In this document: positions 12,967 to 43,244 of the stretch, piece by piece
Position numbering within the stretch: the first letter of the stretch is position 1
Layout of the letters: every line of letters starts with the position of its first letter
DNA from: an uncultured bacterium
GTDB taxonomy: Bacteria > Patescibacteriota > Minisyncoccia > Phycocordibacterales > UBA11359
Assembly (NCBI GenBank): GCA_903831815.1
Contig: CAIKZC010000001.1
Location: forward strand, 85,037 to 149,036
Length of the DNA: 64,000 nucleotides
Reading direction: 5' to 3'
The notes under the pieces: generated by a model
The model's input: the letters and a program-made list of their open reading frames with translations, nothing else
Told to the model about the DNA's origin: nothing
Database searches by the model: none
Position numbers and translations under genes: made by a program

Positions 12967-13079
12967 AGCAAGTAAAAAGAGCAGTTTTGAGGGACTAACG
13001 GAGGCCGACGGGCCGAGTTGGAAGGAAATTTCCAGCAGGAAATTTACCTGTGCCCTCAAAACTGCTCTTTTTACTTGCT
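12967..13079. repeat. Element C copy 1: 27-bp perfect-stem hairpin with a 59-nt loop containing GGAAATTTCC motifs; terminator for the MBL gene
   Basis: AGCAAGTAAAAAGAGCAGTTTTGAGGG...CCCTCAAAACTGCTCTTTTTACTTGCT. The 37-nt loop core gagggcacaggtaaatttcctgctggaaatttccttc is shared, inverted, with 58148-58253. Confidence 0.55.
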
Positions 13080-16794: not shown

Positions 16795-17208
16795 TTAAGA
16801 CTCAAAATCAATCTCAAATGGATACATACCCATGCCGCAAGAGCCTTGCAATTTACCGATATTTTGACTGCCAACTTCAACATCGGTCGTGCCTGTTTGC
16901 GGCAAAATTTTACTGATATTTAAACTTGGAATACGAATTGAAGACGAGCAATCAAAAGTTCCGCTCGTTTTGAAACGCAAGATTGTCGGAAGACCGGCTT
17001 TAGCCGTACTTCTTCTTGGTGAATATCCGCCTCGAGCATCAATTTCAATAATTTGTTTACCATCGACAACGGAAACATTTTGCCCAGCAGTGCCCGAGTC
17101 AACATTGCCAATTCCGATTCCGCCTGCCTGCGAATTATTGTTGGCAATCATAAGAGCGCCAAAAATAATTCCCCCAGCTACTATAATTGAAGCAACGATC
17201 ATTTTCAT
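16795..17208 (-). CDS. Membrane-anchored cupredoxin-like domain protein, copper-island accessory
   Basis: N-terminal TM helix. C-terminal beta-rich domain with CGMGM motif, similar in pattern to the fragment at 2-328. Confidence 0.45.
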   Translation of the reverse strand: MKMIVASIIVAGGIIFGALMIANNNSQAGGIGIGNVDSGTAGQNVSVVDGKQIIEIDARGGYSPRRSTAKAGLPTILRFKTSGTFDCSSSIRIPSLNISKILPQTGTTDVEVGSQNIGKLQGSCGMGMYPFEIDFES

Positions 17209-17231
17209 AAAGTATTTTGAATTATTTTTGA

Positions 17232-18269
17232 TTAAAAATTAAAAACCGGCGCGATGAGACCGATCACCACCAAAGAATTGATAAGGTTAAATATGGCGAA
17301 GGCGATCACGATAAGTCCGGCCGATTTGAAAAATATTCCGGCCTTGGAACTTTTCTGAATGCTGAATGAACTGAAGCTAATCAAGGCCAACACCGGCAAA
17401 GTGCCGAGAGCAAAAGAGAGCATAGTGAGCCCACCGGTAACGAAACTTCCGGTTGATAAAGTGAATATTTGCATTGATTGAGTAAATCCGCACGGTAAAA
17501 AGAACGTCGCAACACCGACAAGGAGCGGAGTGAAAGTATGATTAAATTTTGAAACACCGATAGCATGTTTCGAAAGGAATTTTGGCATACCAGGCTGCAA
17601 TTTTTTGACCCAAGGAAAAACGTCTAGTAAATTTATACCGAGAATGAGCATTACAATTCCGATAATGAGACCGATAATAAAAGTTCCGGAAGTATTGAGA
17701 GTAAAAGCTGAACCTAAAATACCGATAAGTCCACCGAGAACAAAGAATGAAACAATGCGTCCGGCGTGGAACATGACTTGCGGTTTCACTTTACTTCCCT
17801 CCCTGGCAAATGTAGCTGACATGGACAAGAGCAGACCGCCGACAACAGCCATACAAGTTGAAAGTGAGGCGATAATTCCGATAACAAAAGCCGTGCTGTA
17901 AGTGACTTTTCCGGCACCAACTAAATTTATGAGACCAATCTTTTGCAGAATTATAAAGAGAACAATGAAACCAATTGCAATCGGCAAAGCAAATTTAAAA
18001 TCTGACCATTTTTCGGACCAATTTTTTGTTTGCGTTTGTTTTTCGACTGACAAACTATACCCGTGTTTGATGAGGACTTGTGATAAGTCTGTGGCGATTT
18101 GATTGGGCGTTCTTGTCCCAAAATCGCCGGTCACCTCAACGCTCTGATTCTTGAGACTTGAAACCGCATTCACAACTCCTGAAACTTCCTTGAGTTCGCT
18201 TTCCGTCATCAGCTCACACGATTTGCAATGCATTCCATTTACGTGAAATTTGTATGTTTGATTTGTCAT
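17232..18269 (-). CDS. HMA-domain fused to a multi-TM DsbD/CcdA-like (or TauE-like) membrane protein
   Basis: N-terminal GMHCKSCE heavy-metal-associated motif, then 8 or more TM helices with an FLPCGF motif. Confidence 0.55.
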   Translation of the reverse strand: MTNQTYKFHVNGMHCKSCELMTESELKEVSGVVNAVSSLKNQSVEVTGDFGTRTPNQIATDLSQVLIKHGYSLSVEKQTQTKNWSEKWSDFKFALPIAIGFIVLFIILQKIGLINLVGAGKVTYSTAFVIGIIASLSTCMAVVGGLLLSMSATFAREGSKVKPQVMFHAGRIVSFFVLGGLIGILGSAFTLNTSGTFIIGLIIGIVMLILGINLLDVFPWVKKLQPGMPKFLSKHAIGVSKFNHTFTPLLVGVATFFLPCGFTQSMQIFTLSTGSFVTGGLTMLSFALGTLPVLALISFSSFSIQKSSKAGIFFKSAGLIVIAFAIFNLINSLVVIGLIAPVFNF

Positions 18270-18270
18270 T

Positions 18271-20535
18271 TTAGATTTTTTTTGTTTTTAAACGAAGCGA
18301 ATTCCCTACTACCGACACACTTGAAAACGCCATAGCCATGCCCGCAAAAACAGGGCTAAGTAGCAATCCAAAAATCGGATAAAATAATCCGCCAGCTAAA
18401 GGAATGCCAATAATATTGTAGAAGAAAGCCCAAAATAGATTTTGTTTGATACCTCGCATGGTGATCTTGGAAAGATTTATTGCTTTAACTAAGCGAGAAA
18501 TATCTCCATGAAGAAGAGTGATGCCGGCGCTCTCAATAGCCACGTCGGTGCCGGTCGCCATGGCAATACCAACGTCCGCTTGAGCGAGAGCCGGCGCATC
18601 ATTAACCCCATCACCCGCCATGGCCACAATTTTACCCTGTGCTTGCAATTCTTTTATTTTATTTAATTTATCTTCCGGCATAACTTCCGAAACCACTTCA
18701 TCAATGCCGACTTGGTGAGCGATATAATTTGCCGTATTTTTACTATCGCCAGTCAGCATGACAATTTTAATTCCCAATTTGTGAAGTTGCCTGACCGCTT
18801 CGATCGCTTCAGGTTTTACAGCATCAGCCACCATAAATATTCCTAGAACTTTTTGCGCTGTTGCCAAAATAATTGGGGTTTTGCCTTGCAATGTTTCCCC
18901 GTGAATCAATCCAGAATCAAGAGTCAATTTTAAATCTTCAATAAGTTTTGAATTTCCAACAAAATATTCAATACCATCAACAATACCTTTCAAACCTTTG
19001 CCTTTTATGGCCTCAAAATTATTGGTCGATAATAGATCAATATTTTTTTCTTTCGCATAAGAAACAATGGCATGTGCGATCGGATGCTCCGATCTATTTT
19101 CCAATGTTGCTAAAATTGCGATCAATTCATCATCACTAATACCACTAATTTCGCCTTCGCTTTTCTCTCCGGAAAGATTTTTAATTGAAATTAATTCCGG
19201 TTTACCTTTAGTAATCGTGCCGGTTTTATCCATCACCACCACATTTACTTTGTGAAGTTTTTCCAATGTCCCCGCATCCTTCACCAAAATACCTTCACGT
19301 GCACCCTTGCCAACGCCGACAATAATTGCAGTTGGAGTTGCAAGACCGAGTGCACATGGACAAGCGATGACAAGAACCCCCACAAATGAAACCAGGCCGA
19401 AAGAAAGAGCTTGTGAAAAACCAAGATAATGCGAACCGAGCAATATCCACAAACTGAGCGAAACAAAAGCCAAAATAAGGACGATTGGCACAAAAATTCC
19501 GGATATTTTATCAGCCAACGCTTGGATTGGTGCGCGACTACCCTGCGCGTCTTCCACCATTTTGATAATGCGTGCAAGAAGTGTTTCCGAGCCGATGCCG
19601 GTCGCTTTGAACGTAAATGTGCCACTCGTGTTTATCGTACCCGACACCACTTTGTCTCCCGCCTTCTTGCCCACCGGCATCGACTCTCCCGTCACCATCG
19701 ATTCATCTACATAAGAAGTACCTTCAGCGATCACGCCGTCAACCGGAATTTTCCCCGCCGGCTTTACCACGACCATATCTCCATGCACAACTTGGTCGAT
19801 TGGTATTTCAATTTCTTTACCAGAACGCACCACCAATGCCGTTTTAGATTGTAAATTAAGAAGTTTCTCTATAGCGTCTCCGGTTTTCAACTTTGACCGT
19901 GTTTCCAAATATTTTCCGAGAGCAATAAAAGCAATGACCACAATCGTCACATCGTAATATGTCTGACTTACATTAATATAAGCCGCCAATTGTTTCGCAA
20001 ATATCGTAATTGCCAAACTGTAAATAAATGCGGCCAACGTACCAATACCGATTAAAGTGTCCATATTGGCTTTGCCAAATCGCAAAAAGCGATACACGCC
20101 AAGCAAGTAAGGCTTCCCCACCATAAACAGCGCATAAGTCGCCATGATCGGCAAAATAATACTAAAAATAGTTTGGAACGTTTGCGACATTTCCGGAATA
20201 ATTTTCCAACCCACCAAAATATCCCACCCCATGAAAAAAATACTGATGACTGCCAGAGGTATTACAGAAAATATTTTATTCCTCATGCTTCGTAATTCTT
20301 CCAACTTTTCTTTTTTAGTTTGACCAAATTCCAACGAATACCCTAACGGTTCTATTTTTTTAGAAAGTGATTCAGCACTCGTTTTTGTTTTATCAAAAGA
20401 AACCTTGGCCGTTTCGGTGCCATAGTTTACTTGCACAGATTCAACACCAGCAGTTTTTTTGAAAGTTTTTTCAATAATGCTCGCGCATGAAGCACAATGC
20501 ATTCCTTTAATTCTATAAGTTTGCAAAGTATTCAT
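18271..20535 (-). CDS. copA: Copper-translocating P1B-type ATPase
   Basis: N-terminal HMA GMHCASCA; CPC motif IACPCALG; DKTGTIT phosphorylation site; GDGVNDAPAL. Confidence 0.9.
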   Translation of the reverse strand: MNTLQTYRIKGMHCASCASIIEKTFKKTAGVESVQVNYGTETAKVSFDKTKTSAESLSKKIEPLGYSLEFGQTKKEKLEELRSMRNKIFSVIPLAVISIFFMGWDILVGWKIIPEMSQTFQTIFSIILPIMATYALFMVGKPYLLGVYRFLRFGKANMDTLIGIGTLAAFIYSLAITIFAKQLAAYINVSQTYYDVTIVVIAFIALGKYLETRSKLKTGDAIEKLLNLQSKTALVVRSGKEIEIPIDQVVHGDMVVVKPAGKIPVDGVIAEGTSYVDESMVTGESMPVGKKAGDKVVSGTINTSGTFTFKATGIGSETLLARIIKMVEDAQGSRAPIQALADKISGIFVPIVLILAFVSLSLWILLGSHYLGFSQALSFGLVSFVGVLVIACPCALGLATPTAIIVGVGKGAREGILVKDAGTLEKLHKVNVVVMDKTGTITKGKPELISIKNLSGEKSEGEISGISDDELIAILATLENRSEHPIAHAIVSYAKEKNIDLLSTNNFEAIKGKGLKGIVDGIEYFVGNSKLIEDLKLTLDSGLIHGETLQGKTPIILATAQKVLGIFMVADAVKPEAIEAVRQLHKLGIKIVMLTGDSKNTANYIAHQVGIDEVVSEVMPEDKLNKIKELQAQGKIVAMAGDGVNDAPALAQADVGIAMATGTDVAIESAGITLLHGDISRLVKAINLSKITMRGIKQNLFWAFFYNIIGIPLAGGLFYPIFGLLLSPVFAGMAMAFSSVSVVGNSLRLKTKKI

Positions 20536-20845: not shown

Positions 20846-20955
20846 AAAAAAGCAAAAGGCACTTGCAGGGTGCCTTGCGCAGCGCGACTGGCGCGAGCAG
20901 AGCGGACGGCCAGCAGGCCGGAACGCGTGCATCCCCAAAGTGCCTTTTGCTTTTT
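20846..20955 (+). repeat. Element B copy 1: GC-rich about 75-nt conserved core closed by a 17-bp stem
   Basis: Closing stem AAAAAGCAAAAGGCACT...AGTGCCTTTTGCTTTTT. Core ttgcagggtgccttgcgcagcGCGCgactgGCGCgagcagagcggacGGCCagcaGGCCggaacgcgtgcatcc. Confidence 0.65.
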
Positions 20956-24517: not shown

Positions 24518-24910
24518 TTACCAAATTTTAAATAGAGCTTCGCCGCCGATCTTGGCTTTGCGAGCTTCTTTGTCGGTCATAATACCTTTTGAAGTTGAAA
24601 GAATGAGTGAACCAAAACCGTTTCGGACAGAAGCAATTTCCGTAGCGCCTTTGTAAATTCTTCGTGAAGATTTTGAAACACGTTGAACGTCGTTGACGCG
24701 AGGCTTGGTACCATCGTAAGCAATTCCGATTTCGAGAGTTGATTCGATCCCCTTCCCTTTAACTTCGACAGAAGAAATGAATTTGTGATTTTTTAAAACT
24801 TCAGCAATAGCGTGCTTAAGTTTTGAGTATGACAAAGAAATGGTTTCTTTGCGGACAGGACCGGCATTCTTGATACGAATTATTAAATCTGAAATTGGGT
24901 CTGTTACCAT
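24518..24910 (-). CDS. rpsH: 30S ribosomal protein S8
   Basis: DPISDLIIRIKNAG... Confidence 0.88.
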   Translation of the reverse strand: MVTDPISDLIIRIKNAGPVRKETISLSYSKLKHAIAEVLKNHKFISSVEVKGKGIESTLEIGIAYDGTKPRVNDVQRVSKSSRRIYKGATEIASVRNGFGSLILSTSKGIMTDKEARKAKIGGEALFKIW

Positions 24911-25089
24911 GATGATTTTGTAATACCTGGAATAATTCCTTCGTTAGCTAATTCTCGGAAACAGATACGGCATAGTCCAAAATCGCGCATGAAACCGTTT
25001 TTACGTGAACAACGGAAACAACGTCGAACGACCCTTGATTTAAATTTAGGGGCTCGAGCGGCTCGTGCTTTAACTGATGTTTTAGCCAT
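24904..25089 (-). CDS. rpsZ: 30S ribosomal protein S14 type Z (zinc-binding)
   Basis: 61 aa with CxxC...CxxC. Confidence 0.85.
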   Translation of the reverse strand: MAKTSVKARAARAPKFKSRVVRRCFRCSRKNGFMRDFGLCRICFRELANEGIIPGITKSSW

Positions 25090-25149
25090 AAAAAAAGCCT
25101 GAAAAAAGCTTGGGTTTCATCCTAACAAGAAGCAGGTTTAAAGTCAACA

Positions 25150-25262
25150 GAAAGCGCTGCCAAGAGCACCCTTTACAGGGTACGCGTAATTTTCTGCTGA
25201 AAATTCGCTCCGACTCGGCGCCAGTCGCGCCTCGTAGCCCCTGTAAAGGGCGCTCTTGTCCG
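25150..25262 (-). repeat. Element B copy 4, inverted orientation and diverged
   Basis: Closing stem GAGCACCCTTTACAGGG...CCCTGTAAAGGGCGCTC. Reverse complement carries GGCGCgactgGCGCC and ATTTTCagcaGAAAAT hairpins with the same loops (gactg, agca) as copies 1-3 but different stems, and ACGCGT is shared. Confidence 0.55.
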
Positions 25263-25297
25263 CTCAATCAATAGACCTTAAAATCCAGGTAAAAGAA

Positions 25298-25335
25298 AAG
25301 CCCGGGCGGTGTGGGACACCGCCCGGGCGACTATT
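25298..25335 (-). terminator. Intrinsic terminator of dapB
   Basis: GCCCGGGCGGTGTgggaCACCGCCCGGGC followed by a T-run on the minus strand. Confidence 0.6.
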
Positions 25336-25361
25336 TCACGACTTCAAACACTGACCGGTAA

Positions 25362-26222
25362 TCAGCCCGCCTTGAGGACATCGAGCATATCGAAGGCTTG
25401 ACCACGGATACCAAGCTCGATCTTCTTGGACAAGAACCTCAATGCTTTTAGCGCACCTGCAACATAAGGAGCGCGCCCATTGATGTTGTGGAACAAGCCA
25501 ACTCTCACACTTCCATCAGGCGCGCAGAGAGTATACTCGTGCCAACCGTGACCGCCAAGATATTCCGGCGGAACGCCCAGCAAATGTTGCTGTACGACTG
25601 GATCACGAATCATCCCGATATCTTCCACTGTGAACGGAGCTCCAAGACGAGCAAAAGAATCCATAAAGGAAATGGCTGTACCACTCGGATCTTTTTTGCC
25701 TTTCTGATGGCTTTCAACCACGGCCGCCTCGAAACCGGCAAAAACGCCGGGAAACATCTTGGCCGCCATCTGAAAAGTCGCGTGAAGTGCCACGACCTCG
25801 GCTGCCATATTAGGAGCAATGACAGCACAGGTCCGCGAACACTCAACTGCCCGTCGCAACTGAATTCGATCTCCTCCAGTCGTCCCCATGATGAATGGGA
25901 TCCAGTTTTCACAGAAGAACTCTACGTTGCCGTTGACCGCGTCTGGCTGGGAAAAATCGGCGACCACAACCGTACTTTTTTGTTCCGTCCGCATATAACT
26001 AATATCGGCTAGTGCAAGTTTCCGGTTTTCGGGGCGCACCAAGGAAATGCCAGACGCCGCGTCTTGATCTTCGGTTATCTCCGGACCAGTGAAGGCGAAA
26101 TTCGCCAATTCAAAATCATCCGGACACCGAAGAATCGCTTCGCGAAGCAAACGAGACATCTTGCCGGGAAAACCGCTGAGGATAACCACCGTCGGCTTCT
26201 TGGTCGTACTCGTACCACTCAT
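25362..26222 (-). CDS. dapB: 4-hydroxy-tetrahydrodipicolinate reductase (start at MSGTST preferred; the ORF extends to 26273)
   Basis: VVILSGFPGKMSR (NAD(P) binding); ESHQKGKKDPSGTA (DapB E-HH-K-D-PSGTA signature); GTTG. GC about 55%, against about 38% for the flanks. Confidence 0.8.
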   Translation of the reverse strand: MSGTSTTKKPTVVILSGFPGKMSRLLREAILRCPDDFELANFAFTGPEITEDQDAASGISLVRPENRKLALADISYMRTEQKSTVVVADFSQPDAVNGNVEFFCENWIPFIMGTTGGDRIQLRRAVECSRTCAVIAPNMAAEVVALHATFQMAAKMFPGVFAGFEAAVVESHQKGKKDPSGTAISFMDSFARLGAPFTVEDIGMIRDPVVQQHLLGVPPEYLGGHGWHEYTLCAPDGSVRVGLFHNINGRAPYVAGALKALRFLSKKIELGIRGQAFDMLDVLKAG

Positions 26223-26372
26223 ATCGCACCTCTTCCTGTAAAAGTTCTGTGAAAGGACATTGAAACTAAACAATTTCTAGCAGAGAAATGCGACGAAGTC
26301 AATACTCGTCGTTTTGTATAAAAAAAGAAAGGACCCTTGCGCTTCGCGCAAGGGTCCATGAAATCTCTGCTA

Positions 26373-27665
26373 TCAAGTCTGCAACATCTCATGGCTAGCT
26401 TCACGAAGCGTTCGCCACAAGTCTTCCGTCGTTTCGGCCCGACGGATCTGTTCGACCATACCATCCTCATGACGCAGAAGCTCCTGCGGAGCGGTGCGTC
26501 CATTGTAATTGGACCTCATCGCAATACTATGTGCTCCGGCTTCATGAACGACGATAATGTCACCAAGCTCGATGAATGGCAGAAGTCGCCGAGTGGCAAA
26601 CCGATCGGTGTTTTCACACGCTGGTCCAACAACATTCACTCGGTACAGCTGACCTCCCTTCACTCTTCCGGATGGATCCAAAACATCAATATGATGATAC
26701 GCACCATAAATGAATGGTCGTGGAATCGAAGCCATCGGACAGGCGTCGACGCCGATATGCGTCTCATAAGTATCCTTGCGATTGATGACCTTGGTCACCA
26801 AGGCGCCGTGAGGACCGGCCATGAATCGCCCGTTCTCCATAAATAAAGACGGGGCCCATCCATGAGCAGTATTGAAATCCATCAGAAGTCGTCTGGTTGC
26901 CGACGTCAATCTCTGGGTATCGAGCGGCTGCTGACTGGGTCTGTAATTCACTCCCCAACCACCACCGACGTTTATGTACCTGCAGCGCTTACCAGTAGCC
27001 TTCTCCAACACTTCGCAACGCTCAAGAAGCATCTTGGTTGTCGCGGCGTGGTATCGCCAGTTGCGCTGATTGGAGCAAATCATCGAGTGGATGCCGGAAG
27101 TTGTGGCACCCGCATTGAACGCTCTCTTGTATGCCGGAACGAATTGCTTGTCAGTCACACCATATTTGGCTTCCTGAGGTTTGCCAATAATGGAGGTACC
27201 TTTTCGTGCCCGACCGGGGTTGAAGCGGAAACAGATGTGGTCGGGGAAATTTTTCCCCATGGACTTACAAATACGCTTTACGGGTTCGACCATGGAAATA
27301 TCATCCAGATTCAGAATGACACCCATGTCGAGTGCTGTCTTAAATTCCTCGGTCGAGGTGTTGTTGGAAGTGAACATAACATCACAACCGGTTGCACCAA
27401 CGGAAGCTGCAAGCTGCAACTCGTGAACAGAACTGCAGTCAAAGCCGAAACCCATACTCCGCATTACTTTCATAATCGAATCGTTGGGCAAAGCCTTGAC
27501 AGCAAAGAATTCCTTGAAGTTAAAGCCCTCAAAGGCTGTATTCAGACAGAGACCGGTTGATTTGATTCCCGCCTCATCATAGATGAAAGCCGGTGAACCA
27601 AACTTGGCGATGATTGTCGGAACATGCGGATAAAGACGACGCTTGAATGACTGCGACAGTGGCAT
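26373..27665 (-). CDS. lysA: Fold-type III PLP-dependent decarboxylase, probable diaminopimelate decarboxylase (ORF extends to 27710)
   Basis: FAVKALPN (PLP-Lys region); ...GPACENTDRF... Flanked by GC-rich terminators (GGACCCTTGCGCttcgCGCAAGGGTCC at 26328-26356). Confidence 0.6.
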   Translation of the reverse strand: MPLSQSFKRRLYPHVPTIIAKFGSPAFIYDEAGIKSTGLCLNTAFEGFNFKEFFAVKALPNDSIMKVMRSMGFGFDCSSVHELQLAASVGATGCDVMFTSNNTSTEEFKTALDMGVILNLDDISMVEPVKRICKSMGKNFPDHICFRFNPGRARKGTSIIGKPQEAKYGVTDKQFVPAYKRAFNAGATTSGIHSMICSNQRNWRYHAATTKMLLERCEVLEKATGKRCRYINVGGGWGVNYRPSQQPLDTQRLTSATRRLLMDFNTAHGWAPSLFMENGRFMAGPHGALVTKVINRKDTYETHIGVDACPMASIPRPFIYGAYHHIDVLDPSGRVKGGQLYRVNVVGPACENTDRFATRRLLPFIELGDIIVVHEAGAHSIAMRSNYNGRTAPQELLRHEDGMVEQIRRAETTEDLWRTLREASHEMLQT

Positions 27666-27857
27666 GAATGCCTCCTTATGATTCTCTGAAAAAGACCTTT
27701 GACAGAACATCTGCCAATTTAATCTGTCCGAATACTACATTTTGAATTAAGGTGTGTCAATAAATAAAAATGCAAAGAAAAACCCGCCGTTTCCTCGGAG
27801 GAAACGGCGGGACTATTCATGAAAGAACCGATCACAAAACGAACGTAGGCCCAGCGA

Positions 27858-29072
27858 TTAGTACGCGACGCTGGCCTTATCGAACGCCTCAGCGATCCCG
27901 TTCGCGTTCGCGAGCACATCGTTAACGACGGCATAGCGAATATATGGATTGAACGGCACACCAAGCACACCAGTGTTCTCAAGCATAAGCCGATTGAAGT
28001 GCTCGGCATCTGTAATCACCTGGCCGAACGCCATCTTCGGCGTCTGCCAGAGAGTGAAGAAACCAGCCTGCGGGGTGACCGCGAGCTTCATTCCTCGCGG
28101 ACGCAAGATGCTGATCAAGGCACGGATGCGCTGATGATACAGCACCTGGGTCGCCTTGACCTCATCCATCCCATTTTCGAGTTGCTCGAGAATACCGATG
28201 GCGGCGAACGCGGCGAACCCGCTGTCTGCATCACCCTTGATGCGGGCGATGTCGTCAATGAAATCCGCGCTACCCACCATGGCACCAATTCGCCAACCAG
28301 TGAAGTTGCCGGCCTTGGAGGCCGAGAATGCTTCCGCCCAGGAAAGACCTGGGAATTGGCATGCGATTTGAGCAAGAGTCGGGTGACCAGATTCGTGAGT
28401 CACCAATGTGTAGGCCGCATCATTGACAAGCCTGATATCACGCTGTTGGCAATAACCGCACACGTGCCTGACCCAATCCTCATCCATCGCCCTCCCCGAA
28501 GGGTTGTGTGGAAAATTCATCATGACCAGACAGCGACCAACCTCCCGCTCCGTCGTGATTTGATCGAGCGTAAAAAGGAAACCGTTGTCTGGGCTCAACT
28601 TCAGAGCAACATGAGAAATATCGGAACCATACACCTCAGACCAATACGCCGGGGTAGGATAGCCGGGGTCGGTGCATGTGAACACTGTGAGATAAGGTGT
28701 GTCACGCGCCACCGCCCCACACGCGAGCGGAATGAGACCGAGCATCGGCTTGATGCCCGGAATCGGCAAATACCCCAAACCCTCAACATCGTCGAGGCAG
28801 TCGCCAACGTGGCAACGCACAAAACGCTTCGCGAAATCAGGAATCGGCAAACAGCCGTTGTCCTGGTATTCATGCATGTTCTGATCGCGCGACATCACCG
28901 CTTTCGCCGTGGCCTTGCAGGCCAGTTCGAGAGCCGGGCCACTTGGCTGACCGATCGAGAGATTGATGACCTTGACACCTTTCTCTTCGGCCGCTCTCCT
29001 TATGGCCTTGTTACGTTGAAACACGTTGCCCGGCGCAGCCGGCAACCACGATGTGAGAGTTGACTTCGCCAC
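27858..29072 (-). CDS. Class I/II aminotransferase, probable LL-diaminopimelate aminotransferase (DapL-like)
   Basis: PLP-Lys motif SASKAGNFTGWRIG; N-terminal NLSIGQP; adjacent to dapB and lysA. Terminator CCCGCCGTTTCCtcggAGGAAACGGCGGG at 27783-27812. Confidence 0.55.
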   Translation of the reverse strand: MAKSTLTSWLPAAPGNVFQRNKAIRRAAEEKGVKVINLSIGQPSGPALELACKATAKAVMSRDQNMHEYQDNGCLPIPDFAKRFVRCHVGDCLDDVEGLGYLPIPGIKPMLGLIPLACGAVARDTPYLTVFTCTDPGYPTPAYWSEVYGSDISHVALKLSPDNGFLFTLDQITTEREVGRCLVMMNFPHNPSGRAMDEDWVRHVCGYCQQRDIRLVNDAAYTLVTHESGHPTLAQIACQFPGLSWAEAFSASKAGNFTGWRIGAMVGSADFIDDIARIKGDADSGFAAFAAIGILEQLENGMDEVKATQVLYHQRIRALISILRPRGMKLAVTPQAGFFTLWQTPKMAFGQVITDAEHFNRLMLENTGVLGVPFNPYIRYAVVNDVLANANGIAEAFDKASVAY

Positions 29073-29199
29073 TGTGAGATCTCCTTAATTTGCAACGAAC
29101 CTTAACAGAGAAAAAGCCCTGTCAGCTTTATGGACAAAGTGTCCTACTTCCGGTTCAGAAACTAACATTTTAAGTGCAATGAGTCAATGTCTAACAAAA

Positions 29200-29232
29200 A
29201 ACCACCTTCGGCAGGTGGTTTTTTGTTTTTTA
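29200..29232. terminator. Bidirectional terminator downstream of rplE (AAAAAACCACCTtcggcAGGTGGTTTTTT)
   Basis: Same AAAAAACCACC...GGTGG form recurs at 43986-44012 and 56165-56200, each at an island junction. Confidence 0.6.
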
Positions 29233-29241
29233 AATTTTAAA

Positions 29242-29889
29242 TTATTTAGCAGGAGCTTCAGCGGTAAGAGGTTTTGCAGCTGCGCGAACTCGTTTACGTT
29301 TGGTGACTTCTCGTTTGTCGGCAACTTTCTTGAGAGGCATGCCAATGTGTCGGAGGAGTGCAATTGATTCTTCTTTAGTCTTTGCACTTGTGACAATCGT
29401 AACTGACATTCCAAAAACGTCTTTTAATTCTTCATCAGAAGTTTCCGGAAAAATAACGTGTTCACGAATCCCAACACTAAAGTTACCCATTTCATCAACA
29501 GAACCCGGATTAATTCCGCGGAAGTCTTTAGTTCGAGGAAAAGCGATGTGAATAAGTCGAGTTAGAAAATCTTCCATTCGTTTACCGCGGAGAGTTACTT
29601 GATATCCAACTGGGTCCCCTGCTCGAAGCTTGAAAGAAGCAATAGACTTTTTAGCGCTTCGTAGAGAGGCTTTTTGACCGGTAATTTGAGCGATACGATC
29701 TTCAACTAATTGGCTTTTCTTTTTATCCTTAAATGATCCGGTGCCAACAGAAACAATCACCTTAGTCACTTTAGGTGCTTGCATGACATTTTTGTAACCA
29801 AAAACTGGTTGTAATGCTTTGAAGGCGCTCTGTTGTTTTGCGTGTACGAGTTCCATGGTATTTAAATTACTTATCAGCTCGCTTCTCAA
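29242..29889 (-). CDS. rplE: 50S ribosomal protein L5 with a basic C-terminal extension
   Basis: Ribosomal L5 N-terminal and central consensus. Confidence 0.85.
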   Translation of the reverse strand: MRSELISNLNTMELVHAKQQSAFKALQPVFGYKNVMQAPKVTKVIVSVGTGSFKDKKKSQLVEDRIAQITGQKASLRSAKKSIASFKLRAGDPVGYQVTLRGKRMEDFLTRLIHIAFPRTKDFRGINPGSVDEMGNFSVGIREHVIFPETSDEELKDVFGMSVTIVTSAKTKEESIALLRHIGMPLKKVADKREVTKRKRVRAAAKPLTAEAPAK

Positions 29890-33008: not shown

Positions 33009-35552
33009 TTATAGAGGAGAAATTCCGAAGCCGGCGCCGAGGTAGTTGACGATATTTCGAGCTTCAAGTTCCGGGCGCCACGTAGCTTGCGATTGCAATC
33101 TCTCGGCGCCGATAAGTGAACTTAAAGTAGCTGATCCACCAATTGAAGCGCTGTAACTTTCGACGGTGCGAGAAACATCAGGGAAAGTAACCGCTTGTGA
33201 CACCGCACCAGTTTCTTTAGAAAGAGTCAGCCAATTGGTAAATGATTTTGGTGCATCCTGAATCATGAACCAATTTGATGCTGCGGCATTAGTGTAATAT
33301 GTGTTGTTGCTGAATGTTGCTCTAGCGGTTGACAATACTCCTTCAGAAGATACGGATGGAGATTGATAAAGCTTATCCTGGAATTTATTTCCAATAACTT
33401 GAATGTTTGTGAGTGGTCCGGCACTCAGCCCCACGAAACCTTGATTCCAATTGTAGAGAACGTTGTTTGAAATGGTGACATTCTGACTGGCCACAATACT
33501 TTCCAATCTGATACCGAAACTTGTTCCATTATTTGGTTTGTTTAGAAGCAAGTTGTTTGTAATGAGACCGCCATTGATACTTCCTAGATCAATTCCATAA
33601 CTTTGATCGGCTCCACCCAGCACTCTTCCTGTTTCAGTTAGCACATTATTCCGAATTGTGGCATCAATTGCACCATACTGAACCGAGGCTCCTTCTCCGG
33701 TTTTTGCGCCAACCGACATACTATTGCCGTTTGCGGCGAGAAGATTATTTTCGATCAGAACATGATTGGTTAGATTAGCGCCATTTTCGCTTCGCACCAA
33801 TATACCCTCACTTGAGGCATTAGAAATAATGTTATTTCTAATCGTGAGGTTCGTCATGTCATCCAGATACATATTGTGACTACGATCATCAGGCACTTGG
33901 AAACCGGTTTTCCAACCATTATGATCGATCACGTTAAATTCAATCAACATACCGTCAGCCGTTGAAGCAAAAATACCTTGCGATTTTGGTCCTCCAGCAT
34001 TGTAAGCATCAAGAATTCTGGAGCCGCGAATTGTGACGTGACTTGGACCTTTAGATGCATTTAGAGATGTGTCAGGTTCAGCTACAAAGTTATCAATAAA
34101 TCCTTCAATCGTACAATTTTCAACTAAGAAATTATTGCCCGAACCGTAAATGAAGATTCCTGTACCGTTTCCTTGACCTACGAGATGAAGTCCGACCATC
34201 GCAACGTTACTGGTGTTAAGTCCGTAAAAGTTTATGCCATTGTTATCCGCCGTTTCCGAAATAATCGGCTGTGCTCCGGTGCCGTAACTTGAAATTAACA
34301 TTTGCGCTGTAGCCAGTCCGGATTTTCGCCAACTGAAACTTTCATTTGTCCATGTGTCCCCTGCTTTGAGAAGCAACCAGTCCGGATAACCGTCACGAAT
34401 TAAAGAATATCCTTTGGCCAGTGTTTTTACCGGATGAGCTGAATCAAGGCCGGTATTGCTATCATTTCCTCCCGAACTACTGACATAGATTTTCTGAGTA
34501 TTGGCAGCGGCAGTGAAAGTTGTCCAGGTTACAGCGCCAGTTGAAGTTGGTGGCGGAACAACTGGTGGCGGAACAACCGGAGGAGCATACGTGCAAGATT
34601 GAGAGGTGACAGGTGTTCCTGTGCAACCAGCTGGAGCTGAAGTATATGTTCTGGTCTGTGTGTTATTTGACTGACAATCACTCCAAGCACCGTAAGTGTA
34701 TGTGCAAGCCTGTACCGGCGGAACATAAGTACAAGATTGTGACGTCACCGGAGTGCCCGTGCAACCCGTTGGAGTTGACGAAGCGACCGTACGAGTTTGA
34801 GTACTGTTTGATGCACAAGTTCCCCATGCACTGTAAGTATAAGTACAAGCTGAAGGAGGAGTAGTTGTCGAAGATTGATAATCAAAAACCACATCAACCC
34901 AATAATTTCGATTATTCCAAGTACTGGTCGGGAAAGTGTTTATATTGTAAACATAAACTCCGTTAGGTCCATTTTTTGTATTACTTGCCAGAGCGCGAAT
35001 AACTCCATTTTTATGAACAGTGCTGAAATAATTAGAATTTACGGCATAGAAACCGTTTGATGTAGAATACGAAGCGATATAAGGAGTATTGGCGGCAATT
35101 GCTATAGGCGTAGAGAAATTGGCGCTTTGCCATCCGGAAGCAGTTTCATTGATAAAAGTTACTGATCCAAGGAGAGCTCCTGTTGTTGTCCAAAGATGAC
35201 CGACGTGAGTGCCGGTATCACCCGGAATTTTATAAAATTGAATTTGTCTGATGTTTCCCGGGACATCGGTGCGAATTCTGACACCCAACTCAACCGGTTT
35301 ACCTGAACCAGTCTCGGAAGGTTTAACCGTATTGTCCCAAAGCTCAGCGGTACTTATCACAGGAGCAGGCGCGCTCTGTGTATTTGTGACCAAAGTCTCC
35401 GTTTGAGGAGTAACTCCATAGAACAAAGCGGCTGTCTGTTCTTGTAAGGCCGGAATTCCGGTATACAGTACATATGCAGCTATAGATATTACGAGCAAAA
35501 CGAAAACCCAGAGAAGAAGACGTTTCATATATTTATTTAAAAAAACGAGCAT
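33009..35552 (-). CDS. Large cell-surface protein: N-terminal TM anchor, two tandem Cys-rich 47-aa repeats, PPVVPPP linker, and right-handed parallel beta-helix (pectin-lyase-fold) repeats
   Basis: 847 aa. Repeated (I/V)xNN(L/V/I) beta-helix rungs (IRNNIISNA, IENNLLAANG, IRNNVLTETG, ITNNLLLNK, ISNNVLYNW). Two 141-nt tandem DNA repeats at about 34570-34850. Confidence 0.65.
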   Translation of the reverse strand: MLVFLNKYMKRLLLWVFVLLVISIAAYVLYTGIPALQEQTAALFYGVTPQTETLVTNTQSAPAPVISTAELWDNTVKPSETGSGKPVELGVRIRTDVPGNIRQIQFYKIPGDTGTHVGHLWTTTGALLGSVTFINETASGWQSANFSTPIAIAANTPYIASYSTSNGFYAVNSNYFSTVHKNGVIRALASNTKNGPNGVYVYNINTFPTSTWNNRNYWVDVVFDYQSSTTTPPSACTYTYSAWGTCASNSTQTRTVASSTPTGCTGTPVTSQSCTYVPPVQACTYTYGAWSDCQSNNTQTRTYTSAPAGCTGTPVTSQSCTYAPPVVPPPVVPPPTSTGAVTWTTFTAAANTQKIYVSSSGGNDSNTGLDSAHPVKTLAKGYSLIRDGYPDWLLLKAGDTWTNESFSWRKSGLATAQMLISSYGTGAQPIISETADNNGINFYGLNTSNVAMVGLHLVGQGNGTGIFIYGSGNNFLVENCTIEGFIDNFVAEPDTSLNASKGPSHVTIRGSRILDAYNAGGPKSQGIFASTADGMLIEFNVIDHNGWKTGFQVPDDRSHNMYLDDMTNLTIRNNIISNASSEGILVRSENGANLTNHVLIENNLLAANGNSMSVGAKTGEGASVQYGAIDATIRNNVLTETGRVLGGADQSYGIDLGSINGGLITNNLLLNKPNNGTSFGIRLESIVASQNVTISNNVLYNWNQGFVGLSAGPLTNIQVIGNKFQDKLYQSPSVSSEGVLSTARATFSNNTYYTNAAASNWFMIQDAPKSFTNWLTLSKETGAVSQAVTFPDVSRTVESYSASIGGSATLSSLIGAERLQSQATWRPELEARNIVNYLGAGFGISPL

Positions 35553-35700
35553 TAAACACTATTAATACTTTAATTGTATACTTGTCAAATATTTAGGCTA
35601 CGCAAGTTATCCACAGGGGGGATAAAATGTTTTATTTAAAAAAACTCCGCATAATCGTCTTTTGGACTTTTACACGGAGACCTTTCCTTCCAGCGAACGA

Positions 35701-36315
35701 TCATGTTCTGACAACGGTGCCCAAAAATTCATCCAGCTCAGCTTGTTCTTCAGGACCGATTTTTGACCCCTCATCGATCATGAGCAACAAATTCCCCTCT
35801 TGGAACGCGATTCTCCTCTGCGGTTTCTGTTCGATAGAACCGATGAGAATGATCTTTACGTTCGGCACAGGCGCATCATAACGACGGCAATGAGAAAGAC
35901 AGAAAGTTGTCGAAAGTAGGATACCCCCAAGCTCCTCCAATTGAGGCTCTGCAAGTTGTACCCACCGGTTTTCGTCACGCTCTTGCTGTTCGGGTCTCGC
36001 GAATTCGAGCCTGACCACGTAACCAAAACCCATCCCACGATGCTTCTCGGGATAGACGTGCGCCAAAACAAAACCTGCCTGCTCCATCTCACGCAAGATC
36101 CCCGAAGCAGTGACCCGCCTCTGCATTCCCCATATCTGCTGAGGTGCAGGATAGAGGATGACCTTCTCCGATCGTGGAACCGGTATGCCGTTTACGATGG
36201 CATACTGAAAAGTCTTCAGGGCGCCAACTGTTTCTTCCCCGCCCATAAAATAGACGGAGACGGCGCCAATATCGGCCAAACTCACACCATTGAGACACAT
36301 CATGACTAACCTCAT
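35701..36315 (-). CDS. Hypothetical protein (204 aa) in a GC-rich patch
   Basis: Continuous ORF spanning a region with GC well above background. No confident motif. Confidence 0.4.
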   Translation of the reverse strand: MRLVMMCLNGVSLADIGAVSVYFMGGEETVGALKTFQYAIVNGIPVPRSEKVILYPAPQQIWGMQRRVTASGILREMEQAGFVLAHVYPEKHRGMGFGYVVRLEFARPEQQERDENRWVQLAEPQLEELGGILLSTTFCLSHCRRYDAPVPNVKIILIGSIEQKPQRRIAFQEGNLLLMIDEGSKIGPEEQAELDEFLGTVVRT

Positions 36316-36390
36316 ATGAAAAGACCTTAATTAGAACTCTTTCGAGAAATTATCACTAAATATCAAATTCGTCAAACGGAAACACAAAAC

Positions 36391-37038
36391 CTATTCATGA
36401 AATCCAATTTTTTCTTTTTTCGGTTCTTCCGGTTCCTCCAGTACCGGTTTCTTCAGCCGTTCTAATGATTCCACGGATTCCGCCAGTTTCTCTATAACAC
36501 CAAACACGATTTGAAAATTTTCGCCATATTTTTTCTCCAAATCATCCAGGCGATGAGCGAGTTCGCTATTCAGAGACAAAATCTGGCGCAATTTCACAAA
36601 AGTTTTAATGATGGCAATGCTCATGGCCACTGCCCGCGGGCTATTAAGCACCGTAGCGGCCATAAGCGCACCGTGTTCGGTAAAGGCGTAGGGTAAGAAA
36701 CGACGTTTGCTAAAATTTGCGGTTCCAAATTGGAACCGCAAATTTTGACCCTTTTTCAAGGTCGCAATTTGCGACCTTGAAACCTGATCTTCGTTCAAGG
36801 TTCCAATTTGGAACCTTGAACGAAGATACTCTGCTTCACTTTTTGTAAGCTGAAACATAAATTCTGCAGGAAAACGATCAATATTACGTTGTACCGCCTT
36901 ATTTAAATTCTTTGTCTTTACTCCATACAAACTCGCCAAATCACTGTCCAAAATCACCTTTTGATTACGAATAATTAAAATTATCTGCTCCACCCTCTCC
37001 TCCGGCGCAAGACCCACGCCATTGATATTTTTGTTCAT
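36391..37038 (-). CDS. ORF6N-domain (KilA-N-like) protein, paralog 1, with an in-frame roughly 120-nt palindromic expansion
   Basis: ...IRNQKVILDSDLASLYGVKTKNLNKAVQRNIDRFPAEFMFQLT...RFLPYAFTEHGALMAA... is the ORF6N signature. It carries an extra segment QIGTLNEDQVSRSQIATLKKGQNLRFQFGTANFSK relative to paralog 2 (55468-55974). Confidence 0.75.
   Translation of the reverse strand: MNKNINGVGLAPEERVEQIILIIRNQKVILDSDLASLYGVKTKNLNKAVQRNIDRFPAEFMFQLTKSEAEYLRSRFQIGTLNEDQVSRSQIATLKKGQNLRFQFGTANFSKRRFLPYAFTEHGALMAATVLNSPRAVAMSIAIIKTFVKLRQILSLNSELAHRLDDLEKKYGENFQIVFGVIEKLAESVESLERLKKPVLEEPEEPKKEKIGFHE
36710..36827. repeat. Three consecutive long palindromes (35, 29 and 41 nt) inside the ORF6N paralog-1 CDS
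   Basis: aaaatttgcGGTTCCaaattGGAACCgcaaatttt; tttcaaGGTCGCAAtttGCGACCttgaaa; atcttcgttcaaGGTTCCAAtttGGAACCttgaacgaagat. Confidence 0.8.
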
Positions 37039-37085
37039 GCCAAAAGCCTAACAAATGGAGATAAAATATTAATAAAATCCAGCTA

Positions 37086-37384
37086 TTGACAAAATCTTGG
37101 CTTATGCTAAGATACAAGAGGAAAATTTCAGAAAGTCTCTTGGCACTAACTGACCCGTTCTTGGAACTGATCATTCTAAAGGGCGCACTCAGAAGGCCGG
37201 TGATAGTCATGCACCTTAGCTGAAACTCTTCGTGAGATTCGAGGTTTCAGTGACAAAAGAGCGGAATCCTCACTAAGGGAAGCGTATGCACATGTCGCGA
37301 CCCCTGATTTTTTTAAAAATGTGCCGGTCATTGGACCGAGAACGAACAAACCCCTCAGCTACGCTTGATGAGGGGTATTTTCTT
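37086..37384 (+). ncRNA. Candidate small RNA: orphan promoter (TTGACA-16-TAAGAT) to an intrinsic terminator, with no ORF
   Basis: -35 at 37086-37091 and -10 at 37108-37113. Terminator CCCCTCAgctacgcttgaTGAGGGGtattttctt at 37351-37384. No ORF over 30 aa on this strand. Convergent with the downstream gene. Confidence 0.4.
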
Positions 37385-37405
37385 GGCCAAAAAACTAAAA
37401 ACTAC

Positions 37406-38029
37406 TTAAACACTGAGTATTTCAAACCTCTCACCCTCGACAAAAACGGCTTGGTCGTCGTTTAGGAAAATGAGCGGAGTTTTGTTTTCCGCGAGGTGCT
37501 CCATAACTTTCTTATTATCCGCTACAATATCGGGATTATTGGTATGCGGCAAGATCATGAAGTTGACCAATCCCAAAGCTCTATAATCGGATATCAAGTT
37601 GAGGTATTCCGTTTCCCCACCATCGTACTGCGCCAAGGTCACATCTTTTGCCGCTATCATGGAACCCGCGCTCGTGCCGGTGTATATAATTTCACCCTTC
37701 CGCACAGCGTCAACCACCACCCCTGCGAGACCGCTCTTCTGCAACACCGACAAAAGAAGCAACACACTGCCCCCGCAAAAATGAATAACCTCTGACCTCC
37801 CCAAAAGCTCCCTCATCTCCTCTTTTGTCGTCTTCCTCAAATCAACATCAACAATTTCACAACCCAAAGACGTAAACGCTTCCCTGTCGCTCCGCACCCA
37901 CCACGGCTCTTCAACCTCATCCGCCGCGTTCCTAATAAACATCACCTGGCAGCCCTTCCCCACCTTCGGTGCTTTCATCGCGAGAATCGAAATCGTATTT
38001 TGCAAACTTGAGGCGAGGAAGAGGGTCAT
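37406..38029 (-). CDS. Peptidase S51 family (dipeptidase E-like)
   Basis: GTSAGS nucleophile motif; IHFCGG; 207 aa. Confidence 0.7.
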   Translation of the reverse strand: MTLFLASSLQNTISILAMKAPKVGKGCQVMFIRNAADEVEEPWWVRSDREAFTSLGCEIVDVDLRKTTKEEMRELLGRSEVIHFCGGSVLLLLSVLQKSGLAGVVVDAVRKGEIIYTGTSAGSMIAAKDVTLAQYDGGETEYLNLISDYRALGLVNFMILPHTNNPDIVADNKKVMEHLAENKTPLIFLNDDQAVFVEGERFEILSV

Positions 38030-38034
38030 GGTTA

Positions 38035-38574
38035 TTATTTTATACCTCCAAAATTATACTTCCATCCCGGCTGCCATTTGAAGTGAGTCGATGTTAATTG
38101 CTCAAGCGTTACACCATTGATTAAATTTTCCAAACCAAACTGTGTTGCTCTATGACCGATTATCATAACTCGCTTGCCATCATAATTTTTAAACAAGTCT
38201 TCTAAAAAAGATTTCATTCGTACAGTTGTTTGAGTATAACTTTCACCATTAGGAAAAGGCGTTGAAATTCTTTGTGGTTTTTCCTTATCAACAATCTCGC
38301 TGGGTTTTTGAGTAAAATCACCATAGTTACATTCTCGTAACCGAGCGTCTTTTACAATCGGCCATTTATTACCAAAACCAATTTCTGCACTATTGTATGC
38401 ACGTTGAAGATCAGAGCAAAAGATTGCATCAAAATGATCATTTTTATATCGCTCTCCCATTTCTTTTGATTGTTGAATACCTAAAGGAGACAAAGCCACG
38501 TCATTGTGTCCGGACGCTAAATGAGCTTCGTTATCAAATGTAGTTCCGTGTGCTTCAAATATTATTTCAATCAT
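38035..38574 (-). CDS. Histidine phosphatase family protein (phosphoglycerate-mutase-like)
   Basis: N-terminal EAHGTT catalytic His motif, a variant of RHG; 179 aa. Confidence 0.65.
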   Translation of the reverse strand: MIEIIFEAHGTTFDNEAHLASGHNDVALSPLGIQQSKEMGERYKNDHFDAIFCSDLQRAYNSAEIGFGNKWPIVKDARLRECNYGDFTQKPSEIVDKEKPQRISTPFPNGESYTQTTVRMKSFLEDLFKNYDGKRVMIIGHRATQFGLENLINGVTLEQLTSTHFKWQPGWKYNFGGIK

Positions 38575-38668
38575 AAAATTATTCTAATATTTTTGATTTA
38601 TCACCAACTGTAATTGTACCAAAAAGAAAGGCCGGCGGAAAACTAATCTTTACTTTTTTAATATTATA

Positions 38669-42405: not shown

Positions 42406-42557
42406 CCCTTACATTATAACTTTTATAAGTTTTTCTGGGAAGGGCTATTTTCAATATTAACTAATGATAAGGTCTTTTGGAAAAATATTTTTTAATCAAC
42501 ATGGCTAAAGAAATATTTATACAATCAACAACATTTTTTATTTTCTTTGTAAATTCA

Positions 42558-43244
42558 TTAAAATGGCTTTGGATACGACTTCATTGGTCCAATAATTTCA
42601 TAAAACTTCTTTAAGTTAACGATAACAGATCCATTATTTGAAAAAATTTTCTTTTTGTGTAATACAGATAAGTCGATGTCGTCTTGGGAAAAATTATCAT
42701 TTGCGACTACATAAAAAAGTTTACCAGAAAAGTTTTTATACTTATCAATTTTTATATTTATATTGTTTTGTAAATTAAGCATTGTATCAGTATTAAAAAT
42801 ATCAACACCAAAATTACCGTCTGGAGAATAAACATAAAAATCTACCCTATTTCTTGAATCATCAAAAATTTTCTCAGTATGTACGAAGACCTCACCAAAT
42901 TTATTTTTTAAAATTCTCTCTAAAGCCAACTCACTGGCACGCCCCCTTTTATTAACACGGAGAGCTATCTCACTCCTAAATTTACCTTTTCCAAAATGAA
43001 CATCTTCATAACCTAAAACCGAGCGCAATTGTTGCAAACCTCCAAATCTTCTTTCAATCATTTTCCGATTCGGCAAGAATTCAAATGAATCTAATTCTAT
43101 AGAACCTGGATACCTTCCGTTTAGTTCTTTAAAATATTCAAATCCGTCTTTAAGATTTTCAAGACTCCATTTCTCTCCAACAACATTTTTAATATTCTTT
43201 TTTAAATTTTTATATTTTTCCATTAGATTTAAATACGTAGCCAA
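42558..43244 (-). CDS. Hypothetical protein (228 aa) in the R-M island; possible nuclease partner
   Basis: Co-directional with the MTase. Weak PD-(D/E)xK-like pattern (VDFYVY...GVDIFNTD). Speculative. Confidence 0.4.
   Translation of the reverse strand: MATYLNLMEKYKNLKKNIKNVVGEKWSLENLKDGFEYFKELNGRYPGSIELDSFEFLPNRKMIERRFGGLQQLRSVLGYEDVHFGKGKFRSEIALRVNKRGRASELALERILKNKFGEVFVHTEKIFDDSRNRVDFYVYSPDGNFGVDIFNTDTMLNLQNNINIKIDKYKNFSGKLFYVVANDNFSQDDIDLSVLHKKKIFSNNGSVIVNLKKFYEIIGPMKSYPKPF

Follow-up and report, generated by a model that had tools for sequence, protein, structure and literature searches.

How did a set of genes for the synthesis of diaminopimelate and lysine come to lie inside a ribosomal-protein operon of a bacterium from the Candidate Phyla Radiation (CPR), or Patescibacteria, a group that is usually described as being without amino-acid biosynthesis? 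The question is raised by a 64-kb stretch of DNA from an uncultured bacterium (hereafter the window), in which an inserted segment of about 4.1 kb (~25110-29241) interrupts the spc operon between rplE (L5) and rpsN (S14) with three minus-strand genes, coding for a class I aminotransferase, a LysA-type decarboxylase and a plant-type DapB. Our analysis makes it probable that this segment is an accessory metabolic module, of the variant that uses the aminotransferase DapL, which was inserted at a hot spot and came from within the radiation. The trio itself adds a further example to a gene set that is common within the radiation. More unusual than the lysine genes are the pattern of insertion hot spots in these ribosomal operons and an unclassified folded element.

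The placement of the three genes between rpsN and rplE, reported by an initial annotation made from the letters alone, is confirmed by the list of open reading frames (ORFs) of the window and by both junctions in independent assemblies. In the direction of transcription (all features that follow are on the minus strand, save where said), the last gene ahead of the insertion is rplE (29242-29856; called as Ribosomal_L5 in identical contigs), directly past whose stop codon lies a perfect 15-bp hairpin (AACAAAAAACCACCT/AGGTGGTTTTTTGTT, 29193-29227) that is terminator-like on both strands. Next come the aminotransferase gene (27858-29072, 404 aa), whose GTG start is preceded by the Shine-Dalgarno sequence AAGGAG and, further upstream, by a candidate promoter from a pattern scan, TTGACT-N17-TAGTTT (29159-29187); the gene for the decarboxylase, a fold-type III enzyme dependent on pyridoxal phosphate (26373-27665, 430 aa), with the candidate promoter TTGACA-N17-TAGTAT (27732-27760) and the Shine-Dalgarno sequence TAAGGAGG; and dapB, for a protein resembling 4-hydroxy-tetrahydrodipicolinate (HTPA) reductase (25362-26222, 286 aa), with the putative promoter TTGACT-N17-TAGAAA read directly from the letters (26274-26302). 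The claim that each gene has its own strong GC-rich terminator likewise holds, for on the 3' side of each there is a perfect hairpin of ~12-13 bp followed by a T-run: at 27783-27811 for the aminotransferase gene (13-14 pairs, nine of them G-C), at 26331-26357 for the decarboxylase gene, where it doubles as the left edge of a dapB cassette shared with another locus, L003, and at 25300-25328 for dapB (13 bp, 11 of them GC). Between this cassette and rpsN stands a three-way-junction element (25155-25260, with its core at 25173-25246), after which a further candidate promoter, TTGACT-N17-TAGGAT (25119-25147), would restart transcription of rpsN (24904-25089; zinc-type S14, 61 aa), the first gene past the insertion, and of the genes downstream of it.

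All three trio genes thus combine, on their 5' side, a strong Shine-Dalgarno sequence with a site of the form TTGACW-N17-TAGNNN. The narrower pattern TTGACW-N17-TAGNWT has five matches in the window as against 0.14 expected by chance, two of them before island genes and two at operon restarts, before rpsN and before rpsS. From these consensus matches alone we infer that the insertion cuts the spc operon into separate transcription units: each trio gene, with its promoter-like site, strong Shine-Dalgarno sequence and perfect terminator, would be an expression unit of its own, and the operon would be split by a terminator for rplE and a restart promoter for rpsN. Near-copies of the rplE hairpin (AAAAAACCACC-loop-GGTGGTTTTTT) also follow rplB (~43984-44010) and the rpsG region (~56162-56195), and the near-identical hairpins at each operon break look like a repeated terminator module.

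The identification of DapB is well founded at the level of the family. Both of its domains are recovered by Pfam (PF01113, DapB_N, NAD(P)H-binding, 44.2 bits with a cut-off of 25.6; PF05173, DapB_C, 40.6 bits with a cut-off of 27), the best NCBIfam model is dapB_plant (TIGR02130, 2e-65), and the protein aligns with the plant HTPA reductases 5U5N/5U5I, 7T34 and 5UA0 at 1e-51 to 1e-54. The motif that had been quoted for it, E-HH-K-D-PSGTA, does not stand: in its place the protein has the plant-type E-S-H-Q-K-G-K-K-D-P-S-G-T-A, a form of E-S-H-Q-x-x-K-x-D-x-S-G-T-A (VVESHQKGKKDPSGTA aligned to VTESHQSTKADVSGTA of 5U5N). Apart from itself, it is at most 50% identical to any of 5.8 billion proteins, and the best matches that carry names belong to Desulfobacterota, Geobacter relatives or other free-living bacteria (47-50%). 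Its branch is long, with a tip length of 0.265 and a median distance of 0.54 as against 0.37 among the others, and its neighbour-joining sister is the plant-type DapB that adjoins the aminotransferase in locus L148.

The aminotransferase is a class I enzyme, as had been proposed (PF00155, Aminotran_1_2, 70.8 bits, above gathering), and its three best NCBIfam models are all of LL-diaminopimelate aminotransferase (1e-36 to 7e-39), the next-best family being 7-10 orders of magnitude weaker. N190, D218, Y221, S250/S252, K253, R261 and R379 are invariant in the alignment of its family (A2). The top 120 matches that carry names are all from Patescibacteria, and the nearest relatives share 50-62% identity with it. 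The DapL-like label survives only as that of the best-fitting models, from whose cut-offs the protein falls far short, and by its sequence the aminotransferase belongs to a separate, Patescibacteria-wide family that is DapL-like at best.

For the decarboxylase, the proposed fold is borne out by PF02784 (Orn_Arg_deC_N, 105.6 bits) and PF00278 (Orn_DAP_Arg_deC, 53.6 bits), both above gathering, and by its best PDB relatives, which are all LysA (3e-41 to 1e-27); LysA is also the best NCBIfam match (TIGR01048, 1e-80), at a score below the cut-off. The residues K57, H193, G234-236, E277, R280, C350, E351, H379 and Y387 are invariant in 158 members of its subfamily, the window protein included. This subfamily, which is common to Desulfobacterota, Geobacter relatives and Paceibacterota, is marked by the motifs CEN-D and GAH, standing where textbook LysA has CESGD and GAY. 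At 61-63% identity, its closest relatives make up a clade of four members, among them the decarboxylase of another trio-bearing contig, and many of the named matches at 51-53% are from Desulfobacterota, Geobacter relatives and other free-living bacteria. For this protein as for DapB, most of the top matches bear no source name and so give no indication of a donor.

What ties these proteins to a common pathway is chiefly the company that their genes keep. Among 84 loci with homologues of the aminotransferase, 80 of them from a scan of JGI metagenomes, a LysA-type gene adjoins that of the aminotransferase in about 50. Four loci (L135, L161, L171 and L173) have the arrangement dapA-dapB <> lysA-aminotransferase-murJ, with dapA identified by Pfam at 2e-101; in six others (L095, L106, L115, L117, L165 and L176) the aminotransferase and LysA genes lie between rplB and rpsS, and a Paceibacterota contig has the order rplB, decarboxylase-aminotransferase, and then rplJ rplL. 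A plant-type DapB adjoins the aminotransferase in L148, in the window and in ENA contig ERZ1426827 (71.6 kb), which bears the best aminotransferase match (62%) and has the order greA, DapB-aminotransferase-decarboxylase, mraZ rsmH ftsI murE. It is mainly this linkage to lysA, dapA and dapB that places the aminotransferase family in the diaminopimelate pathway. In thirteen loci, a lineage without a CPR-like appearance (L111, L113, L123, L131, L134, L139, L141, L145, L149, L150, L160, L163 and L174) has the aminotransferase without an adjacent LysA, in the conserved order TldD-TldD-PAC2-HEAT-GNAT-aminotransferase-PurF-trehalose phosphatase; the family must therefore also have a role without need for a neighbouring LysA.

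The functional reading of the trio as enzymes of the DapL route to diaminopimelate and lysine is accordingly plausible on the strength of family matches and neighbourhoods. The plant-type DapB would turn HTPA into tetrahydrodipicolinate, the DapL-like aminotransferase would turn this into LL-diaminopimelate, and the LysA-type decarboxylase would turn meso-diaminopimelate into L-lysine. The module would then be likely to supply the cell wall and the proteins with diaminopimelate and lysine, starting from a precursor that either comes from other genes of the same genome or is taken from a host. The DapL variant is known from plants, Chlamydiae, cyanobacteria, Desulfuromonadales, Bacteroidetes, Spirochaetes, Chloroflexi and Firmicutes (PMC4176475). 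A literature search on diaminopimelate or lysine genes in Patescibacteria, Parcubacteria or CPR bacteria returned nothing specific. The trio and its many relatives point to a compact DapB/DapL-like/LysA set that is widespread in the radiation, often in the ribosomal cluster or by cell-wall genes, and this bears on how episymbionts get diaminopimelate and lysine for their peptidoglycan.

The organism itself is a Paceibacteria/Parcubacteria-type CPR bacterium, in agreement with the CPR-like host inferred at the outset: by E-value, the best matches of its L5 are all Patescibacteria, mostly of Paceibacteria/Parcubacteria lineages, with at most 71% identity to any of 185,579 GTDB species representatives, and the ORF list of the window has no L30 gene between rpsE and rplO. 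Against this background, the insertion stands out in composition, with 0.48-0.57 GC in 1-kb steps across the gap vs ~0.40-0.43 in both flanks. Per gene, in the order aminotransferase, decarboxylase and DapB, GC is 0.56, 0.50 and 0.52, so that the elevated GC first reported is real and its uniform value of about 55% gives way to a range of 50-56%; at third codon positions (GC3) the values are 0.65, 0.54 and 0.53, which lie 5.1, 3.0 and 2.8 standard deviations above 38 host genes (mean 0.38, sd 0.054). The initial annotation had suggested horizontal acquisition, and had held that clustering with CPR homologues together with a genome-like GC3 would speak against it. Such clustering is largely present, and GC3 deviates, the genes being compositional outliers in the comparison with those of the host. 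Moreover, trio genes are found at no position in any of 80 related Paceibacteria loci around rplE (L014-L093). Acquisition is therefore sustained by outlier GC3 and by this absence, and what loses support is the source outside the radiation, along with the picture of an exotic capture by bacteria to which such genes are otherwise foreign: the nearest relatives of the aminotransferase are Patescibacteria, and the decarboxylase clade takes in the other trio contig, where the genes lie beside the dcw cluster. The donor was most likely another, GC-richer member of the same radiation.

A sign of mobility comes from dapB. The cassette at window positions 26332-25177, which takes in the gene with its putative promoter and its terminator as well as the greater part of the structured element, recurs with 100% identity in two other contigs (L003:138-1293 and L004:1-1111), in which it sits upstream of rpsB; the two rpsB genes are ~88% identical as proteins and have 41-43% GC, like the host. 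The left flank of L003 differs from the window, and the change falls exactly at the T-run of the preceding terminator. The dapB cassette at least would, on this reading, still pass among co-occurring relatives.

Several accounts of how the trio came to its place compete with that of a module circulating within the radiation, and some observations sit uneasily with the latter. The window has no integrase or transposase ORF, and no direct repeats or target-site duplications flank the island; the 4.1-kb island has no match by blastn in plasmid and phage collections, and a family scan of viral contigs found no relatives of the aminotransferase. The alternative contexts of dapB come from short metagenomic contigs, and one such contig, L002, is clearly chimeric, an unrelated head of ~70% GC (L002:1-378) being joined to the interior of the decarboxylase gene. 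This calls for caution with short contigs from these data, and it is the one point in favour of regarding the insertion as an artefact of chimeric assembly or contamination. Such an artefact is extremely improbable here, since several assemblies, made from different samples, have both junctions at 99.99-100% identity: L001, a contig of 8 kb that stems from another sample, is 99.99% identical from L14 (rplN) to S5 (rpsE), the trio included, an 11-kb contig covers rpsS through dapB, and further contigs cover each junction. Composition, too, says less about a recent transfer than it first suggests, because a GC3 excess of the aminotransferase and decarboxylase genes is a systematic feature of CPR-like loci: in 29 of these the aminotransferase exceeds its neighbours in GC3 by a mean of 0.13, with z > 2 in 14 of them and a highest z of 9. 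Hence, composition alone gives no date for a transfer, and the excess reflects either repeated transfer from GC-richer members of the radiation or a constraint that holds GC3 near 0.5-0.6 in hosts whose own GC3 is 0.2-0.45. The latter possibility is at the heart of the view that the trio is native and vertically inherited, its GC3 being a gene-specific constraint and its position one of the two places where the operon naturally splits. The excess recurs in CPR-like loci even though the proteins are only ~50% identical to each other, the aminotransferase-decarboxylase pair occupies the rplB|rpsS junction in the six loci named above, the promoter-like sites of the cassettes follow the same pattern as those at which the host would restart rpsN and rpsS, and neither DapB nor the decarboxylase has a relative above 63% identity among the 5.8 billion proteins. 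We nevertheless consider native inheritance unlikely: none of the 80 related loci has the trio at or near the site, the dapB cassette occurs at 100% identity in at least two other contexts with differing rpsB genes, and where the same aminotransferase family occurs in the lineage of non-CPR-like appearance, its GC3 equals that of its neighbours (difference 0.01), which argues against an intrinsic constraint. Very unlikely, in turn, is capture from outside the radiation, for instance from a Desulfobacterota-like donor with the DapL route and a plant-type DapB. To such a donor point the named matches of DapB and many of those of the decarboxylase, which are from free-living groups, and the known presence of the DapL pathway in Desulfuromonadales (PMC4176475); the top named matches of the aminotransferase, all of them patescibacterial, the trio contig in the nearest decarboxylase clade and the host-like promoter pattern tell against it, as does DapB, which is equidistant (~50%) from everything on its long branch, so that no recent outside donor is visible.

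The function of the module, as distinct from its origin, must be weighed against the reading that the aminotransferase-decarboxylase pair does not serve de novo lysine synthesis and performs some other or a salvage reaction, such as the conversion to lysine of meso-diaminopimelate from the turnover of a host's wall, in which case the substrate of the aminotransferase would be a different keto acid, or the provision of LL-diaminopimelate for an LL-type wall. Most of the points that weigh against the DapL-route assignment speak for this reading. All three proteins score under the curated cut-offs: DapB has 220.4 bits where the equivalog cut-off of TIGR02130 is 294.55, a value that its relatives P0055 (343 bits) and P0007 (296 bits) do pass; the decarboxylase has 271.1 bits for a TIGR01048 equivalog cut-off of 297.9, which its subfamily straddles (Citrifermentans 299.5, Paceibacterota 305.7, Desulfobulbus 286.5, the trio contig 277.7); and the aminotransferase has 133.8 vs 507 for PRK09276, 125.1 vs 585 for PRK06290 and 123.5 vs 593 for TIGR03540, with four relatives likewise far below and the whole family at 125-155 bits. 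The profile of this family matches class I aminotransferases of a generic kind (2X5D, 6L1L, 1O4S) better than it does the solved structures of DapL, to which it is remotely related (E ~1e-9 to 1e-10). The fold as such, being common to class I aminotransferases, would be no guide for telling DapL from its relatives. The decarboxylase subfamily lies directly behind an AsnC/Lrp-type regulator, and not by dap genes, in Citrifermentans bemidjiensis (L182:6487-8266) and Desulfobulbus propionicus (L183:6526-8257), a context that may leave room for a role other than that of a housekeeping LysA; one source calls the subfamily 'TabA-related', a name on which a literature search was uninformative. As the initial annotation anticipated in calling the pathway partial, dapA, dapF, asd and lysC were not found in the window by ORF inspection, Pfam searches of unassigned ORFs and a scan for the DapF motif; nor did that scan, a crude one, find DapF beside any homologous cluster in the window or the 84 aminotransferase loci, where dapA is seen in four loci only. 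Without DapF, LysA would have no substrate from the DapL route. Parcubacteria, finally, are reported to lack most amino-acid biosynthesis while retaining peptidoglycan synthesis, with a glycine-bridge-forming enzyme in most of them (PMC4508563). Given the scores below cut-off and the lack of dapA and dapF, the pathway assignment rests on the best family matches and the neighbourhood, and these are what set the balance: the linkage with dapA and dapB, the latter of two types, and with murJ or the dcw cluster, and best family matches that are consistently of DapL type and LysA, make a role outside de novo synthesis quite unlikely.

The site of the insertion is no less informative than its contents. 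We recorded all gaps of more than 500 nt in the S10-spc cluster of the 80 Paceibacteria loci, and found them to be confined to a few positions. Such gaps are present at L5|S14 (rplE|rpsN) in 37 of 65 loci, of which 25 exceed 1 kb with a maximum of 5.9 kb, and at L2|S19 in 33 of 44; secY|adk (13/40), S10|L3 (9/31) and adk|map (8/35) follow, L24|L5 (4/78) and L15|secY (1/51) are rarely opened, and the 14 other junctions of the cluster never are. The cargo at L5|S14 is unrelated between genomes, including a Cas1-like gene, toxin-antitoxin-like pairs, and secreted and membrane proteins. Thus, rplE|rpsN is one of the few positions at which the ribosomal operons of Paceibacteria tolerate or attract inserted DNA, and these operons emerge as having a handful of sharply defined hot spots, whose cargo serves defence, metal resistance and metabolism.

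More insertions of this kind are present in the window itself. Between rplB and rpsS, 11 kb of inserted DNA (33009-43780) codes for an 847-aa beta-helix/DUF4082 protein, an ORF6N-like protein, a peptidase of family S51 (GC3 0.60) and a histidine-phosphatase-like protein, as well as for a type II restriction enzyme (38669-39883) and a double-domain C5 methyltransferase (39880-42405), the last two at 30-35% GC. An insertion of ~4 kb between secY and adk (16795-20535) carries one gene for a P-type ATPase of the copper type, one for a protein in which HMA and DsbD are fused, and one for a small membrane protein. A third, of ~5 kb and low GC, separates the rpsG region from fusA and encodes a 369-aa reverse transcriptase (52176-53285, plus strand), which is recognised by Pfam as RVT_1 and by PADLOC as RT (3e-53), followed by the RT part of the Cas1-RT model and UG17; no template and variable repeats of the type seen in diversity-generating retroelements were found near it.

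The second unusual feature is the structured element on the rpsN side of the trio. It has a very stable predicted fold (-83 kcal/mol, z = -5.4), in the form of a three-way junction of ~73 nt whose closing stem is often extended to 20-30 bp, and its conserved parts are a hairpin loop AGCA and GCGCAG/GAG motifs. With a covariance model built from six copies, we located it in the window at 12987-13060, 20866-20937 (directly after secY, at the copper ATPase insertion), 43881-43952 (directly after rplB) and 56064-56135 (after the rpsG region) on the plus strand, and at 25173-25246 (before rpsN) and 58163-58236 on the minus strand. Both orientations thus occur, and four of the six copies (those at 20.9, 25.2, 43.9 and 56.1 kb) are at ribosomal-operon junctions with inserted DNA. 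In other loci, copies lie directly after secY (L037:8363-8433), directly after rplB (L043:4177-4246 and L056:4417-4487), upstream of rpsS on a contig without rplB (L055:640-712), between adk and map (L077:11141-11212) and before rplC (L086:204-274). The pairing is supported by covariation: 88.5% of the alignment cells are paired, a share that drops to 47-50% once the partners are shifted by one or two columns, double changes are seen in 16 of 19 pairs, and none of 500 shuffles reaches the observed score.

Rfam 15 was searched with the island, down to matches of E = 1, and with the entire window at the gathering score, and gave no match at the element; elsewhere these searches recovered a transfer-messenger RNA (tmRNA; 5548-5962, plus strand), which is next to smpB (5008-5517), and one tRNA (2574-2647, plus strand), both of them ordinary. 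The covariance model found no copy in 848 kb of aminotransferase loci, and in viral contigs the core pattern of the element occurred in 99 stretches, at about the level of chance, with the model rejecting all 80 of the listed stretches that were tested. In an informal comparison by hand, the layouts of the hammerhead, signal-recognition-particle RNA, retrons and integron attC sites did not fit. It is within this element, at ~25177, that the 100% identity between the window and L003/L004 stops, being followed by ~35 nt that can be aligned at lower identity, a pattern that suggests crossing-over by recombination inside a dispersed element. As a speculation that we regard as rather doubtful, we suggest that it could belong to a new class of folded nucleic-acid elements that mark, and perhaps mediate, the exchange of cassettes at a few fixed junctions in the ribosomal operons of Paceibacteria, with the diaminopimelate/lysine module as one of the cargoes circulating among these episymbionts. 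If functional, it would offer a handle on gene flow in organisms with almost no recognisable mobile-element machinery.

Set beside known systems, the island shows likeness at several levels. With the DapL pathway, it shares the same set of enzymes, namely DapB, one aminotransferase replacing DapD, DapC and DapE, and LysA; its aminotransferase matches DapL hidden Markov models best, and related loci have the gene for it together with dapA, dapB and lysA. It differs in that the aminotransferase belongs to a family of its own, at 125-155 bits where the cut-offs are at ~500-590, and in that the trio has no DapF or DapA alongside. To the plant-type DapB of TIGR02130 (5U5I, 5U5N, 7T34 and 5UA0), the window protein corresponds in its full-length alignment, its ESHQ..K.D.SGTA motif and its two domains, and it departs from them in its score (220 vs 294.55), a best identity of ~50% and its long branch. 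Other Patescibacteria-like contigs with the trio or the pair have the same families (aminotransferase 47-62%, decarboxylase 39-61% identity) in tight linkage, often in the ribosomal cluster, whereas the window is distinguished by gene order (aminotransferase-decarboxylase-DapB), by the rplE|rpsN site, by a promoter-like site and terminator for each gene, and by a composition further from that of its host. At the level of the insertion as a whole, the nearest parallels are genomic islands, such as those linked to tRNA or tmRNA genes, and the cassettes of integrons, with which it has in common a variable cargo at a fixed site, atypical composition, modular units and a folded element at the cassette boundary. 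In contrast to those systems, there is here no integrase, no direct repeat of the att type and no conserved attC-like end; instead, the cassettes come with their own putative promoters and terminators, and the hot spots that receive them lie inside the operons for ribosomal proteins.

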